IMG/VR virus record: IMGVR_UViG_2636416161_000001
Span: 1-19,016 of that record
Length of the DNA stretch: 19,016 nt
Strand: one strand, 5' to 3'
Origin: a virus
Lineage: Duplodnaviria > Heunggongvirae > Uroviricota > Caudoviricetes
Below the pieces are notes generated by a model. That model made no database searches. It was not told the DNA's origin and was given only the letters and a program-made list of their open reading frames with translations. A program made the translations under genes and the position numbers. Positions 4,668 to 8,484 of the stretch are shown here, piece by piece (position 1 is the first letter of the stretch; the number at the start of each line of letters is the position of its first letter).

Positions 4668-5234
4668 CTATTGAGTGGAAGCTAACGGAGTGGCAGGGAA
4701 TTTTTTATAAAGCGTAGATACCCCCACATCAAAAATAAGGGCCACTCTTTGCCGGGTTTCGCCTGCAGCAATTAACCGCCCGGCTTGCTCCCACTGTTCC
4801 GGCGTTAACTTAGGCCGCCGTCCTCCTATTCTTCCTTGTACTCTTGCAGCAGCTAATCCCGCACGAGTTCTCTCAACGATTAACTCACGTTCCATTTCAG
4901 CCAGGGCGCCCATGATGTGAAAGAAAAAGCGCCCCATGGGTGTCGAGGTATCAATGCTGTCCGTCAGACTGCGGAAATTAACAGCCCGCTGCCGCAGTTC
5001 CTCCACGAGAACCACCAGATGCCGCATACTGCGCCCAAGTCGATCAAGCTTCCAGACAACCAACGTATCTCCCGGTGACAGGGTTTTAAGCAGCTTTTTT
5101 AATCCGGGGCGGTCCGATGTTTTACCGCTCATTTTGTCCTCAAAAATCAGCTCACATCCTGACCGCTCCAGCGCATCACGCTGCAGCGCCGTGTTTTGTT
5201 CATTTGTTGATACGCGCACATAGCCAACCTGCAT
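4668..5234 (-). CDS. Serine DNA invertase (Hin/Gin/Cin/Pin family)
   Basis: [38 protein letters not shown]...[15 protein letters not shown]...[35 protein letters not shown]...GVSTLYKKF: catalytic-serine N-terminal motif, resolvase core and C-terminal HTH. Start taken as ATG 5234 (the ORF-track start 5252 is TTG). AAGGGAA precedes the ATG. Confidence 0.9.
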
Positions 5235-5288
5235 CTGTTTTCCCTTATGCAAAAGCCCGAATGATGCCAGCCAGGCAGGAAAACTGCA

Positions 5289-5314
5289 TTTTCTTAAACG
5301 TTGGTTTAGGAGGA
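5289..5314. repeat. Invertase crossover site 1 (gix/hix-like)
   Basis: ttttcttaaacg TT ggtttaggagga; the right half resembles the gix half-site as I recall it (GGTTTACAGGAA). The core TT occupies codon positions 2-3 of the alternative fibre frame. Confidence 0.55.
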
Positions 5315-5644
5315 GCCGCTAAGTTAGATGCAGCAAGTGCATCATTTGGAGAAAATGGCTGGTTGAGATTACCTGTGCTACTTGGCACTGATAAAAAGAC
5401 GCTTATCATTCAATGGGCATACGGCACAGCTGGAGGATCAAATTCTACAGGGCTTGTTTGTAACTTCCCTTTCACCTTTCCAAATCAGGTATTTACAGTT
5501 ATGACTGGTAATGTCGATCAGACATATACGTCAACCTCTATTCCTGGAGCGATAGGGTTCTGCAATGTTACAAGGGCGTCAATTATTGCAAAAAGCACCT
5601 TGTCATCATCAGAACAATTCTATTATCTGGCTATAGGTTATTAA
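5300..5644 (+). CDS. Promoterless alternative tail-fibre C-terminal segment (Sv'-like), expressed only after inversion
   Basis: Open frame ...VGLGGAAKLDAASASFGENGWLRLPVLLGTDKKTLIIQWAYGTAGGSNSTGL...QFYYLAIGY, homologous to the present H C-terminus (...[18 protein letters not shown]...FNYLAIGY). No start codon of its own; in frame with H across the crossover core. Confidence 0.7.
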   Translation, partial: VGLGGAAKLDAASASFGENGWLRLPVLLGTDKKTLIIQWAYGTAGGSNSTGLVCNFPFTFPNQVFTVMTGNVDQTYTSTSIPGAIGFCNVTRASIIAKSTLSSSEQFYYLAIGY

Positions 5645-5645
5645 T

Positions 5646-6077
5646 ATGGATAAGTTTTTTTATAGTCCTTCCAAAAATGAGTTTTATCTTTCTGATTTAA
5701 GATCTGAATACCTTAAATCAGGGGCGTGGCCTGAGGATTCAGTGGAAGTTAGCGATGATATTGTATTTAACTTTATTCAGACGCCTGCTGAAAAAGGAAA
5801 GATGAGAATAGCAGGTGATGACGGCCTTCCGGCATGGACAGATATACCAGCACCAACTCAAGAAGACATAATTGCTGCAAATGAAGACAAAAAAGCAGCC
5901 CTGCGCGTTATTGCAGATTCAGAAATAGCATGGCGACAGGATGCCGTTGATGTAGGCATCGCGACGGAAGTTGAAACCGCCGCGCTTACTGAATGGAAAA
6001 AATACCGGGTGCTGCTGATGCGTGTTGAAACAGCAGACCCGGAATGGCCTACGCCTCCGGCGACTCAGGCCAGTTAA
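5646..6077 (+). CDS. Tail fibre assembly protein (alternative copy, lambda Tfa-like)
   Basis: MDKFFYSPSKNEFY... N-terminus and ...TEWKKYRVLLMRVETADPEWPTPP C-terminus; ATG lies 1 nt after the alternative fibre stop. Confidence 0.8.
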   Translation: MDKFFYSPSKNEFYLSDLRSEYLKSGAWPEDSVEVSDDIVFNFIQTPAEKGKMRIAGDDGLPAWTDIPAPTQEDIIAANEDKKAALRVIADSEIAWRQDAVDVGIATEVETAALTEWKKYRVLLMRVETADPEWPTPPATQAS

Positions 6078-6483
6078 TATCTGGTGCGCCGGAGGTGTCT
6101 ACGGCCTCCAGCGCATCGAGATAATCCAGCCACAGATTATATTGCCCTTTTTCCACGTCTTTCAGGCGACCTAAAGCGGCTTTGCCGGGCCACTGCTTAC
6201 TATTGATGTAATTGTTCGCTTGTTCAATAAGGTATTGTTTTTTTGCTTCAGCATTTGCAATTAACTCATCTTGTGTAGGTTCAGGGCGCAGAACCCAGAC
6301 TGGCATGTTTTTATCGCTAACCCCACGAATCATTCCCTCAGGTGGAATTCCTGTGAACTCTATAAAAATAGAATCTTCTACATCAACTCCATCCTCCGGC
6401 CATGAGTCTGTTGCTTCGTATGAAGTTTTTAGCTCAAACGGATAGAAAGCATTTTTTGATGGACTAAAAATATAATTTCCCAT
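6049..6483 (-). CDS. Tail fibre assembly protein (copy expressed in the current orientation)
   Basis: MGNYIFSPSKNAFYPFEL... (ATG 6483, 1 nt after the H stop; the ORF track extends to 6495). C-terminus ...DINWPESPEA. Its 3' end overlaps the convergent tfa' by 29 nt. Confidence 0.8.
   Translation of the reverse strand: MGNYIFSPSKNAFYPFELKTSYEATDSWPEDGVDVEDSIFIEFTGIPPEGMIRGVSDKNMPVWVLRPEPTQDELIANAEAKKQYLIEQANNYINSKQWPGKAALGRLKDVEKGQYNLWLDYLDALEAVDTSGAPDINWPESPEA
6052..6097. other. Dyad symmetry at the overlapping 3' ends of the two tfa genes, near the centre of the invertible segment
   Basis: cgcctccggcg (6052..6062) and cgccggaggtg (6087..6097) form an 11-bp inverted repeat with one mismatch, with inner ccag/ctgg pairing. 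Dyad centre 6074.5 versus segment centre 6067.5. Confidence 0.4.
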
Positions 6484-6484
6484 G

Positions 6485-7882
6485 TCAGTACCCAATCGCT
6501 AAATAGTTAAAGGCATCCGAGTTAGCTGCGGCTGACTTCGCAATAAACCCAGTGGTAGTGGGCGACGAAATACCGACTGCTGCTGGCTGTTGTTCTGAAG
6601 TATAAGAGGGGTCAATCTGCCCGGTCGTAATGATGATAATCCCTGACGGGAATGGAATTGGGAACGTATTAGATATTCCCGTTGATGCTGAGTTACCTGC
6701 ATTCGCAGATCCCCACTGCAAAATGTATCCTCCCGGTAGTTTTTGATACCCAGATCCTGACGCGAAGGCGGACATGTCCGGTATCTGATTTGCCCCCGTC
6801 CCGACATTCCTTTTCGATGCCGTTCCCAAACCAAGGTATGCGAGAAGACCAGCTACATCCTTTCCACTCAAATGAGTCAGCGTATTGTCCAGCGGTTGTT
6901 TACCTGCCAGTGCATTAAGCATTGTCGTGGCAAAGTTCGGGTCATTCCCCAGCGCCGCCGCCAGTTCGTTCAGTGTATCCAGTGCCGCAGGTGCAGAACC
7001 CACCATTGCCGCAATCGCCGATTTCACAAAAGCCGTAGTGGCAATCTGTGTATTGTTGACCGACTGTGCCGCCGTGGGGGCTGTTGGCGTTCCGGTGAGT
7101 GCCGGACTCGACAACGGTGCTTTTAGTGCCAGCACATTGTTAATGGTGGTACTGAAATTCGGATCATTGTTAATGGCTGCGGCTATTTCTTTCAGCGTGT
7201 CCAGCGTGGCTGGCGCACCATTAATAAGGGCCGTCAGTGCCGCCTGTACAAACGCGGTGGTCGCAAGCTGCGTGGTATTATTCCCCGCCGCTGGCGTTGG
7301 CGCTTTGGGGGTTCCGGTAAACGTTGGACTTTCTTTGGGTGCATACTGTGAATGCGGGTCCGGCGCGGCAAGATGTTTTGCCATCAGGTCATCCACGTAC
7401 ACCTTCAGCTCCAGTGCCTTGTCATCCACATACTTGCGGGTTGCCAGCACTACAGCAGGGTCGATTTTCAGGGTGATATTGTCCGTGCTGCTGGTAATCA
7501 GCACCATGCGCACGGTCTGGGTACGCCCGCTGCCTTCAGCCAGTTGCGGCTTATAGCTTTCCGGGCAGTTGCCCACGGCAATCAATGCCCCGGACTCATC
7601 AAACAGACCCACTTCACGTATCCACCAACCACCCTCATTTTCAGGGATCACCTGTTCAGCAATAATCTGGCTGCTGTTCTGCGGGTCGATATAGAGCATA
7701 TTCAGCGCAGCCCGGCGTTTCTCATTTACCAGTGCCGTCTGCTTTGCGTCCGGCGTCGGCAATGCTCCGCCGCCATCGCCCACCGCCATATGGGTAATTT
7801 TTAGCGGCACACCGAGCGCGGCGGCGCTGGCAAGTTTCGCCGCGCCAATATCCGTCAGCAGGGTATAAAATTTTGTGCTCAT
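6485..7882 (-). CDS. H: Tail fibre protein gpH (constant N-terminal part plus currently fused variable C-terminus)
   Basis: 465 aa [42 protein letters not shown]..., recognised as P2 gpH-like at the N-terminus. Start overlaps the I stop (ATGA). C-terminus ends ...NYLAIGY. Confidence 0.9.
6821..6846. repeat. Invertase crossover site 2 (gix/hix-like), inside H
   Basis: cgttcccaaacc AA ggtatgcgagaa; left half close to the gix-type half-site TTCC..AAACC. Core is inverted relative to site 1 and in the same codon phase (H codons TAC CTT GGT TTG GGA = YLGLG). Confidence 0.55.
6887..7327 (-). repeat. Tandem duplicated module of about 74 aa (about 222 bp) inside H
   Basis: [72 protein letters not shown] and [72 protein letters not shown], visible also as diverged nucleotide repeats. 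Confidence 0.5.
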
Positions 7883-8484
7883 GGATTCACTCTCATTGTG
7901 TCAATAACATGGACCGCCCCGCCTTCATGCGCGGTGCCGCCGGAAATAATTGTTTCGTTGATATACGGATAGATCGTGATTTCTTCGCCAAGATAGCTGG
8001 CGGCCCCCACCCAATGCGGACCGCTGGTCTGCAGATTGATGGACATGCCGATCATGTGACGGCTACATGGTTTGGCATCGCTTATCAGCCGCTCAAGTTC
8101 CAGATAGGTATCTTCAGTGATGCCCTGGTCCTGCACGCCGATATCCAGGCGAAACGTGCCCGGTGTTTCTCCGGTCTGCCACCACTCAATAATGCGGATC
8201 AGGAAGCCGAACGGCTCCACCACCCGCCGTACGGCACTGGTGGTTCCTTTGTGCTGATGAATATAAAAAGCATCCTTCACTACCTGGCGTTTGACGCTTT
8301 CTGTCCAGCCCTCGTCCCAGCGATCCACAGAGAACGCCCAGGCGAGATAAGGCAGGAAACTGACCGGACAGGTTGCCGGATTCCACAAGTCACGAAGCGG
8401 CACCTGCAGATCAGAAATCCCGCTGCAGGTTTGCGCCAGTCGGCGCTCCAGTGAAGTTGAACCCGGTGGCAGCAGACTATTCAT
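7879..8484 (-). CDS. I: Baseplate assembly protein gpI
   Basis: 201 aa ORF ...[29 protein letters not shown]...GTFRLDIGV..., recognised as P2 gpI-like; ATG 8484; stop overlaps the H start. Confidence 0.85.

Follow-up and report, generated by a model that had tools for sequence, protein, structure and literature searches.

Anatomy of the invertible tail-fibre cassette

The window, i.e. the whole stretch of 19,016 nt that was analyzed, belongs to a P2-like prophage and carries an invertible tail-fibre cassette of the Pin/Gin type, whose two convergent tfa genes share their last 29 nt (Table 1). Profile matches place baseplate genes upstream and sheath genes downstream of the cassette, which is the P2-like setting. 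As in Hin/Gin/Cin/Pin-type systems, the gene of a serine recombinase (resolvase/invertase family) neighbours the segment, crossover sites in inverted orientation bound it, one of the two within the fibre gene, and both orientations occur. The invertase gene is transcribed in the same direction as the tail-fibre operon and points away from the segment. The crossover sites (AAACGTTGGTTT at 5296-5307 and AAACCAAGGTAT at 6828-6839) match the inversion breakpoints relative to Escherichia coli E47, and the two cores set the midpoint of the segment at 6067.5. That the segment is invertible, as originally predicted, was borne out by the flipped copy present in E. coli E47, which is 97.5% identical and lies in the opposite orientation relative to both flanks (window positions 5298-6837 are colinear with E47, while both flanks are reversed). 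The tail-fibre gene has its constant part upstream of the crossover site at 6824-6837 and its variable C-terminus within the segment; in E47 it is the alternative C-terminus that is fused to the constant part.

Both convergent genes are indeed tfa genes, with products that match the Caudo_TAP profile (PF02413) with 102 and 113 bits (gathering cut-off 22.1) over positions 3-130 and 3-131 of its 131 positions. In the present orientation the type B gene, which follows the tail-fibre gene on the same strand, is the expressed copy; its open reading frame extends over 6049..6495 (-) with a probable ATG at 6483. The predicted overlap of 29 nt, with stop codons at 6075-6077 (+) and 6049-6051 (-), proved correct by the open reading frame coordinates. 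The type B TAG is the antisense of P-T codons (CCT ACG) in the type A gene and the type A TAA that of I-N codons (ATT AAC) in the type B gene, and each stop codon is thereby written opposite conserved codons of the partner. The overlap owes its existence to the W-P-x-P-P-like motifs at the ends of both proteins, for which the two strands provide the codons around a single CCGG. It is widespread, as a stop-to-stop distance of -29 was found in 38 of the 69 convergent tfa pairs. Conservation within the cassette is highest around the junction (61-85% identity vs. 30-50% in the gene bodies; for the E. coli homologues 95% vs. 78-81%). Promoter-like matches around the junction were no more frequent than in shuffled sequence, and the sole match in a search against Rfam was IS009 (RF02111), with 29.2 bits (threshold 117) in a stretch that is tfa coding DNA.

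Table 1. Coordinates of genes, crossover sites and predicted structures of the cassette in the window
Feature	Coordinates	Strand	Description
Serine DNA invertase	4668..5234	-	Resolvase domain (E 2.8e-50) and HTH_7
Left crossover core	5298..5311		Within 5289-5314 (TTTTCTTAAACGTTGGTTTAGGAGGA); inversion breakpoint vs. E. coli E47
Alternative promoterless tail-fibre C-terminus	5318..5644	+	Gp53-like_C
tfa' (type A)	5646..6077	+	PF02413, E 3.6e-29; ends ...WKKYRVLLMRVETADPEWPTPPATQAS*; TAA 6075-6077; silent in present orientation
U tract UAUUUUUU	5997..6004	-	Directly 3' of H_A on - RNA; antisense of K-K-Y codons AAA AAA TAC
H_A	6005..6042	-	12-bp stem, one bulge, 13-nt loop; -20.4 kcal/mol, z -5.3, 0/200 shuffles
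H_C	6045..6072		Quasi-palindrome TGGCCT-N16-AGGCCA, centre CC/GG 6057-6060; pair probability 0.94-0.96
tfa (type B)	6049..6483	-	PF02413, E 1.1e-32; ends ...WLDYLDALEAVDTSGAPDINWPESPEA*; TAG read as 'cta' 6049-6051
tfa overlap, 29 nt	6049..6077		ORF coordinates and translations
Central dyad	6051..6098		Arms 6051-6062 / 6087-6098, 12 nt with one G.T
H_B	6078..6123	+	19-pair interrupted stem; covariation; synonymous-recoding z -3.4
Tail-fibre gene	6485..7882	-	Phage_tail_fib and Gp53-like_C
Right crossover core	6824..6837		Inside tail-fibre gene; inversion breakpoint vs. E. coli E47

Predicted fold of the tfa junction

When 156 nt of context were folded, both strands gave three hairpins, H_A, H_C and H_B, with -67.0 kcal/mol (z -5.0) and -67.6 kcal/mol (z -5.4). 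H_C consists of the W-P-x-P-P and W-P-x-S-P motifs of the two proteins on opposite strands around the shared CCGG and was found in every -29 junction obtained by protein homology. H_A is located within the last codons of the type A gene, where RVLL codons pair with TADP codons (synonymous-recoding z -2.2), and on the - RNA it begins 6 nt past the TAG of the expressed tfa gene. Being a stable stem-loop that lies downstream of a stop codon and is followed by the U tract UAUUUUUU, H_A looks like an intrinsic terminator in the present orientation as judged from these sequence features, with the qualification that its loop of 13 nt is unusually long and that the U tract is made of default AAA AAA Lys codons that are equally present in solitary genes. 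A consensus terminator scan, whose match count was at chance level, listed nothing at the junction; H_A went unlisted because its loop exceeds the limit of 3-8 nt set in the scan.

H_B lies within the last codons of the type B gene, where YLDALE codons pair with TSGAPDI codons, and on the + RNA it begins 1 nt past the type A TAA. Its stem is followed by AUCCAGCCACAG instead of a U tract. A U tract is likewise missing from the hairpins of the most frequent cassette type, that of E. coli K-12 e14 included, so neither these nor H_B are classical terminators.

Recurrence, covariation and reading direction of H_A and H_B

Homologues were sampled from viral contigs and by a DNA pattern scan, while a tfa-protein search of genome contigs contributed only 8 loci; the DNA pattern used for part of the sample fixes 17 bases of the overlap, none of which lie in H_A or H_B. 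Both hairpins are recurrent in this family and tied to overlapping gene pairs. Among 66 distinct junctions the flanking structure had a mean z of -4.4 after the stop of the type B gene and of -2.6 after that of the type A gene, in shuffles that ignore kinship. Genes with the same peptide motifs folded better on the antisense strand when convergent than when solitary, both for the KYR type (z -2.37 vs. -0.43) and for the LDxL type (z -4.04 vs. -1.56). The same was true in comparison to synonymous recodings of the same peptides (-2.21 vs. -0.54) as well as for recoding z-values taken by clusters of 85% identity (-1.68 for 70 convergent vs. -0.38 for 58 solitary clusters, Mann-Whitney p 2.5e-7, kinship ignored). 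H_A was missing in about 8 of 30 convergent KYR-type genes. Hairpins of the H_A/H_B type were lacking or only weakly formed in solitary tfa genes, and likewise in Mu, P1 and the loci L112 and L157. Solitary tfa genes have an intergenic hairpin straight after the stop codon, often GTCCCCGCACCTGCGGGGATTTTTTT, and the non-overlapping convergent pairs (Mu, P1, L112 and L157, which represent only two independent lineages) likewise carry an intergenic hairpin and have unstructured coding 3' ends.

Covariation was observed for both stems. In H_B 84% of the cells were paired compared to 77% after shuffling (score 0.268 vs. 0.170), with none of 500 shuffles scoring as high when kinship is ignored; 7 pairs had changed on both sides, and slid controls were paired in 32-46% of cells. 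For H_A explicit pair counts were used because RNAalifold, run on the H_A alignment, did not recover the stem as a consensus; these gave 83% vs. 80.6% in shuffled alignments (score 0.152 vs. 0.114, 0/500 shuffles), mainly through differences at the level of clades. Cells with G.U exceeded cells with A.C in the reading direction of the partner gene, by 28 to 14 in H_A and by 81 to 25 in H_B.

These data bear on the view that H_A, H_B and H_C have no function and arise from conserved protein motifs, common descent and the mosaic exchange of a block conserved at the 3' end of tfa, a view that we regard as unlikely. It would account for the strong conservation of the junction and for H_C, which the W-P codons of the two strands produce by themselves, and the covariation, being partly clade-level and measured by tests that ignore kinship, leaves some room for it. 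Protein motifs and ancestry would not, however, explain why synonymous recodings fold worse in the convergent context only, nor why solitary genes encoding near-identical peptides do without the hairpin (e.g. L068 and L074 vs. L063). The H_B pairs that changed on both sides and yet stayed paired, the excess of G.U over A.C in one reading direction and the gene pairs that have an intergenic hairpin and no embedded ones argue against it as well.

Alternatively, each hairpin could work in the sense mRNA of the gene that encodes it, through ribosome pausing, co-translational folding of the Tfa C-terminus or control of mRNA decay, instead of serving as the 3' structure of the partner. The sense strands are structured too, with a sense z of -3.6 for convergent LDxL-type genes and a synonymous-recoding z of -4.3 in sense for the type B gene of the window. 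On average, however, the antisense strand is better paired (mean recoding z -2.21 vs. -1.72 in sense), the G.U excess of 2-3 to 1 favors the direction of the partner, and an invariant G.U of H_B turns into a C.A mismatch in sense. Given that a sense role also offers no account of the missing hairpins in solitary tfa genes with the same motifs, we consider it very unlikely.

The central dyad

A functional 3' structure had originally been sought in the dyad at 6051-6098, proposed to serve whichever tfa gene is expressed in either orientation. Its location was predicted accurately: the centre at 6074.5 is 7 bp away from the segment midpoint, and the arms enclose a nested pair (ccag 6070-6073 / ctgg 6081-6084). 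Folded alone in 60 nt, the dyad reached -29.8 kcal/mol (z -3.5) on the + strand and -26.0 kcal/mol (z -3.0) on the - strand and ranked within the top 0.13% and 1.3%, respectively, of all 60-nt windows across the full window. Stability on both strands thus held for the isolated fold but not for the 156-nt context, in which the ensemble probability of the dyad was 0.0013 (+) and approximately 0 (-), and the combination of H_C and H_B was more stable than the dyad, by 4.2 kcal/mol for the + RNA and by 6.3 kcal/mol for the - RNA. The right arm of the dyad is one half of H_B, and the dyad as a whole is a lineage-specific alternative pairing of the left half of H_C with the 5' arm of H_B.

Complete pairing of the arms (12/12) was present in only 1 of the 66 distinct homologous 29-nt junctions, that of the lineage of the window. 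Mean arm complementarity across these junctions was 6.7 of 12, compared to 6.8 for shuffled left and right arms (p 0.94). Mismatched combinations of arms pair 12/12 at a rate of 0.26%, corresponding to 0.17 expected cases among 66 junctions. In cassettes similar to e14, 9 of the 12 pairs are retained, a gap of 3 nt interrupts the pairing, and nothing compensates for it; compensatory changes were not seen among the other junctions either. The dyad is thus absent from homologous cassettes, the outcome named beforehand as one that would refute its proposed role, and the family mean is at the level of shuffled arms. The dyad also differs from an intrinsic terminator, as had been correctly noted, in that neither strand has a U run after it (CTACGGCC after 6098 on +, AGGCCAUUCC after 6051 on -), and it lies partly or wholly in translated sequence in both orientations. 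Ribosomes would unwind it, since on the - RNA the type B gene holds it within its final 16 codons, and on the + RNA its 5' arm consists of TPPA codons and its loop contains the stop codon.

A strong local hairpin on both strands so close to the midpoint, which could fold briefly in the nascent + RNA as long as the 3' arm of H_B is yet to be transcribed, is what speaks for the dyad as a functional element. In view of its single complete occurrence, its break in e14-like cassettes and the folds that out-compete it, such a role is highly improbable. The dyad is an accidental complementarity of one lineage, neither a conserved element nor the preferred fold, and as such a coincidence without importance in itself. 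An origin as a trace of homology between the two tfa C-termini was rejected as well, as one arm encodes TPPA in one gene and the other DTSGA in the partner, in frames that differ and at positions that do not correspond by homology.

That the palindromes act as DNA, in the form of a cruciform, protein-binding site or recombination hotspot aiding inversion or module exchange, would suit three adjacent palindromes near the segment centre and the 3' ends of tfa genes, which are known mosaic joints in tail-fibre gene mosaicism, but is barely conceivable, considering that the sequences vary while pairing is kept, unlike in a protein-binding site, that the G.U/A.C asymmetry points to RNA and that the Fis-dependent Hin/Gin/Cin enhancer sits in the 5' part of the invertase gene, as annotated for P1 cin, and not at the segment centre.

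Comparison with known systems

The 29-nt overlap is not new, as it is already annotated for tfaP/tfaE of the e14 P segment in E. coli K-12. This segment (stfP-tfaP / tfaE-stfE, pinE) shares with the window its architecture and the TGGCCTAC-N4-CCGG-N7-GGCCA module, which hairpins flank in both. Its inversion has been demonstrated experimentally (PMC12529663), and tfaP/tfaE is included as a convergent excludon in an RNA-seq-based list (PMC12288877). In contrast to the P2-like prophage of the window, e14 is a cryptic K-12 prophage; its tfa bodies differ (K-12 tfaP is of the LDxL type), both of its flanking hairpins are without a U tract, and the central dyad is absent.

The G segment of Mu and the C segment of P1 (S-U / U'-S', gin or cin) also contain mirror-image fibre ends and tfa genes next to a serine invertase, with a central hairpin between the two tfa genes. 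Their U and U' genes, however, do not overlap but are separated by a 28-nt spacer in which a GC hairpin (AAGGCCCGATAGCGGGCCTT) is placed between an A run and a T run, and their coding 3' ends are unstructured, whereas in the window the hairpins are inside coding sequence. With its 29-nt overlap and no spacer, the window does not have the central intergenic bidirectional hairpin of the Mu type.

In layout, H_A and UAUUUUUU resemble the terminator of solitary tfa genes of P2-like phages, a stable hairpin a few nt from the stop codon of tfa, where the tail-fibre operon ends. The P2-type terminator is intergenic and has a short GC stem, a 4-nt loop and T7. H_A, by contrast, arises within the partner's coding DNA; its stem is bulged and closes a loop of 13 nt, and its U tract lies antisense to K-K-Y codons. 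Convergent bacterial genes with bidirectional terminators or excludons likewise have overlapping 3' ends and structures read from both strands; the window differs from them in having two separate hairpins, one per direction and each in the open reading frame of the partner, in a module that flips with the segment.

Proposed role of the embedded hairpins

Based on their position and sequence, H_A and H_B are probably embedded terminators or 3' stabilizers, one for each orientation. Each is embedded in the final ~25 codons of one tfa gene and follows immediately on the other gene's stop codon, such that H_A with its U tract would serve the tfa gene on the - strand and H_B that on the + strand, both from within the coding sequence of the partner. 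Most likely these hairpins replace the intergenic hairpin or terminator of solitary tfa genes, Mu and P1, because the overlap leaves no intergenic DNA. What is retained of the original proposal of a 3' structure in either orientation is a separate hairpin, H_A or H_B, after each expressed tfa stop; the single central dyad is not. As an overall explanation, the combination of the overlap anatomy, a dyad arising by chance and H_A and H_B acting as embedded 3' elements of the partner tfa gene appears rather likely to us.

The hairpins may terminate transcription of the tail-fibre operon, shield the 3' end of its RNA or do both, and they would also limit antisense read-through toward the invertase. 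We give an even chance to a broader proposal, according to which the last ~25 tfa codons are of dual use, encoding the C-terminus of the chaperone as well as an antisense terminator or 3'-protective hairpin for the partner; the segment would then carry a transcript end in either orientation and shield the invertase from late-operon read-through, under joint selection on protein and antisense RNA. In the literature, no central terminator was found described for the G, C or P segments, the tfa overlap appeared only in gene lists, and no description of one embedded hairpin per direction in invertible tail-fibre cassettes was found. The arrangement would represent a case of doubly constrained coding sequence, in which one strand has to encode a protein and the opposite one an RNA structure, and suggests how compact invertible cassettes may end their transcripts without intergenic DNA. 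If so, the engineering of tail-fibre and tfa genes, as in host-range swaps of P2-like phages or tailocins, would have to keep the structures encoded at synonymous sites. After inversion H_B, with no U tract, would be at best a 3' stabilizer or a weak terminator. The 3' ends would hence be unequal between orientations, a U-tract terminator in one and a bare hairpin in the other, and fibre expression or read-through into the invertase could therefore depend on orientation.

Organization and inversion of the tail-fibre cassette

A P2-like prophage is represented in the window by its tail region, which lies on the - strand. In this region two tail-fibre assembly (tfa) genes, type B (expressed in the present orientation) and type A (the silent copy), meet tail to tail between two crossover cores resembling those of the Hin family. 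Inversion of this segment in nature is a fact that goes beyond prediction: in E. coli E47 the stretch 5298-6837 is colinear with the window at 97.5% identity, whereas the alignment of both flanks (6824-8000, 4693-5311) runs the opposite way. These breakpoints place the crossovers within 5298-5311 and 6824-6837 and the segment midpoint at 6067.5.

Features of the invertible tail-fibre cassette and of the junction between its tfa genes
Feature	Position	Strand	Domain, sequence or remark
Tail fibre	6485-7882	-	Phage_tail_fib + Gp53-like_C
tfa (type B)	6049-6483	-	Caudo_TAP
Second tfa (type A), convergent	5646-6077	+	Caudo_TAP
Alternative fibre C-terminus	5318-5644	+	Gp53-like_C; promoterless
Serine invertase	4668-5234	-	Resolvase + HTH_7
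Tail sheath gene			part of same tail region
Crossover core	5296-5307		AAACGTTGGTTT
Crossover core	6828-6839		AAACCAAGGTAT
Flagged dyad, arms	6051-6062/6087-6098
Hairpin H_A	6005-6042
Hairpin H_C	6045-6072		TGGCCT-N16-AGGCCA
Hairpin H_B	6078-6123
Inverted repeat, 27 nt	5929-5955/6378-6404		81% complementary
Inverted pair	5876-5894/6241-6259

Between the window and E. coli E47, identity is 97.5% in the segment but only 72% in the neighbouring invertase genes (4693-5311 versus L003, 3679-4298), and segment and invertase therefore have different histories. A P2-like prophage of E. coli MS6192 (L001, 2313-3549) carries the same two-tfa cassette with its 29-nt overlap, without an invertase between cassette and sheath gene, and is apparently locked in one orientation. 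The 27-nt inverted repeat joins both tfa genes and is not mirror-symmetric about the segment centre; the inverted pair is centred exactly on 6067.5.

The 29-nt overlap

The stops originally placed at 6075-6077 (+) and 6049-6051 (-) were confirmed as TAA and TAG, giving an overlap of 29 nt. For comparison about 290 related loci were fetched, roughly half of them by a DNA pattern that fixes 17 overlap bases, none of which lies in the hairpins. Protein homology yielded 69 convergent tfa pairs, of which 38 had a stop-to-stop distance of -29 nt; most of the others overlap by a different short length (14 to 53 nt, in some cases a frame artefact), and two loci had a distance of +25. Though real, the overlap is an ordinary and widespread feature that the annotation of the best-known E. 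coli genome already contains: tfaP (1208132-1208545, +) and tfaE (1208517-1209119, -) of the K-12 e14 element share 29 nt. A published list of convergent pairs whose transcription overlaps includes this K-12 pair (PMC12288877).

Both proteins end in W-P-x-(P/S)-P, coded on opposite strands around a single CCGG (6057-6060), and these codons account for the overlap geometry and give rise to the quasi-palindrome H_C. The type B TAG is the antisense of type A CCT-ACN (P-T), the type A TAA or TGA that of type B ATT-AAC (I-N), and the type A tail QAS that of type B NWP. Convergent tfa junctions fall into discrete classes, further ones being -20 (L080, L083), -14 (L018, L041), +25 (L112, L157) and +28 (Mu, L170; P1, L171). 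The -20 class is a symmetric version of the -29 module in which PPE(A/V)* ends both genes, and the non-overlapping classes have a GC hairpin in the spacer.

The flagged dyad

The dyad that was flagged from the sequence exists, with arms of 12 nt including one G.T and an inner ccag/ctgg pair; its centre (6074.5) is indeed close to the segment midpoint, and it has no U tract behind it. As an isolated 60-mer the + strand folds at -29.8 kcal/mol (z -3.5) and the - strand at -26.0 kcal/mol (z -3.0), which puts them among the most stable 0.13% and 1.3% of all 60-nt windows of the stretch. The sequence facts originally stated are thus all confirmed. An origin as an echo of tfa homology was rejected, as the left arm consists of type A TPPA codons and the right arm of type B DTSGA codons in another frame.

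The symmetry was not kept in other cassettes. Across 66 distinct 29-nt junctions, in-register complementarity of the arms averaged 6.7/12 (+ RNA) and 6.5/12 (- RNA), compared with 6.8 and 6.6 after shuffling left and right arms among junctions (p 0.94 and 0.84; statistics ignore kinship). In e14-like homologues, whose junction is 95% identical, the right arm reads CGCTGGATATGT and three inner pairs are gone with no compensating change. The window lineage was the sole case of 12/12 pairing, and since 0.26% of mismatched arm combinations reach this value, corresponding to 0.17 expected cases in 66, one such case is unremarkable. Within 5985-6140 the dyad had a pair probability of 0.0013 (+) and about 0 (-), and the best fold constrained to hold it was worse by 4.2 kcal/mol (+) and 6.3 kcal/mol (-). 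Its right arm falls within the 5' arm of H_B and its left arm makes up half of H_C, which makes the dyad an alternative pairing open to the window lineage only. The flagged dyad is thus a real string feature without sign of function. The original prediction of a 3' structure serving either orientation fails for the dyad, which is unconserved and outcompeted, but as an idea is better fitted by H_A and H_B.

Two recurrent hairpins beside the flagged region

The region 5985-6140 folded into H_A, H_C and H_B on both strands, with energies of -67.0 kcal/mol (z -5.0) and -67.6 kcal/mol (z -5.4), matched by 0/200 shuffles, and pair probabilities of 0.91-1.0 for all three. Over the 66 junctions, mean z was -4.4 for the 60 nt that follow the type B stop and run antisense to the end of type A tfa, and -2.6 for the 60 nt that follow the type A stop, with only -0.8 for the stretch across the junction itself. 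It is H_A and H_B that are conserved.

The H_A stem pairs RVLL codons with T-A-(K/D/A)-P codons and is kept in variants such as CTGCTG/CAGCAG, TTGCTG/CAGCAA and TTGTTG/CAACAA. Its positions were 83% paired (80.6% in shuffles, 28-55% in slid controls), and the covariation score of 0.152 versus 0.114 was reached by 0/500 shuffles (statistics ignore kinship). RNAalifold did not recover the H_A stem, which is missing from about 8 of 30 convergent genes with the KYR type of 3' end. H_A alone folds at -20.4 kcal/mol (z -5.3) with a 13-nt loop; it starts 6 nt 3' of the - gene TAG and is followed on the - RNA by UAUUUUUU (6004-5997), the antisense of AAA AAA TAC. Judged by sequence, H_A with UAUUUUUU has the predicted layout of an intrinsic terminator except for the 13-nt loop, and the U tract reflects ordinary Lys codon usage. 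Promoter-like matches around the junction were no more frequent than in shuffles; one sigma-70-like site (6165-6136, -; CTGAAA, 18 nt, TATAAT; 10/12 matches) lies within type B tfa facing the junction, and a transcript from this putative site would be an RNA of about 130 nt comprising H_B, H_C and H_A and ending at the U tract.

H_B pairs Y-L-D-A-L-E codons with T-S-x-A-P-D-I codons and starts 1 nt 3' of the + gene TAA, without a U tract; in most cassette types, K-12 e14 included, neither hairpin is followed by one. H_B was 84% paired (77% in shuffles, 32-46% in slid controls) with a covariation score of 0.268 versus 0.170, reached by 0/500 shuffles (statistics ignore kinship), and 7 of its pairs were changed on both sides, in 30 such cells (0/500 shuffles). 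In a sub-family of type B 3' ends (L012, L069, L196, L201, L264, L269), the codons for A-V-D-T-S-T-A of the AVDTSTAP terminus form an almost perfect palindrome, GCCGTCGA...TCGACGGC, with TTTT behind it on the strand of the partner; L269 preserves it via two synonymous compensatory changes (GTTGA/TCAAC).

Dependence on a convergent partner

Antisense z averaged -2.37 in convergent (n = 52) versus -0.43 in solitary genes (n = 38) for the KYR type of 3' end, and -4.04 (n = 101) versus -1.56 (n = 18) for the LDxL type; the shared peptide motifs are unstructured in solitary tfa genes, those without a convergent partner. Locus L063 has a z of -3.6 compared with +1.4 and +1.0 in L068 and L074, the peptides differing by one residue. 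When each peptide was recoded synonymously for comparison, convergent genes scored -2.21 and solitary genes -0.54, or -1.68 (70 clusters) and -0.38 (58 clusters) when grouped at 85% identity (cluster-level Mann-Whitney p 2.5e-7; statistics ignore kinship). The antisense recoding scores of the window's own genes were -2.2 (type A) and -3.4 (type B). G.U cells outnumbered A.C cells by 28 to 14 in H_A and by 81 to 25 in H_B; this wobble bias is in favour of the RNA transcribed in the partner's direction.

Probable role at the 3' end

Behind solitary tfa genes the stop is directly followed by an intergenic hairpin, which in many loci is the canonical GTCCCCGCACCTGCGGGGATTTTTTT. Mu and P1 differ from the overlapping pairs in that 28 nt separate U from U' and hold the hairpin AAGGCCCGATAGCGGGCCTT between an A run and a T run; L112 and L157 differ in having a 25-nt spacer with a GC hairpin. 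The coding 3' ends of these four are unstructured (recoding z +0.66 to -0.76, the non-overlapping control comprising two lineages). Solitary genes and spacer loci alike thus carry a hairpin behind the tfa stop, which makes it a general feature; where the genes overlap and leave no spacer, it sits within the partner's coding sequence. H_A and H_B are probably 3' end elements and would belong with the hairpins or terminators known from the ends of convergent genes, in this case lying inside the partner's reading frame. The embedded hairpin would likely end or stabilise the operon transcript, and would likely restrict antisense read-through towards the downstream invertase, a gene on the same strand.

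The 3' part of type A tfa (5882-6037, +) also gave a sub-threshold match to Rfam IS009 (RF02111; 29 bits, gathering score 117). The 3' end of the IS009 consensus reads as the tfa codons W-K-K-Y-R-V-L-L, suggesting that this putative sRNA family rests on a fragment of a tfa gene.
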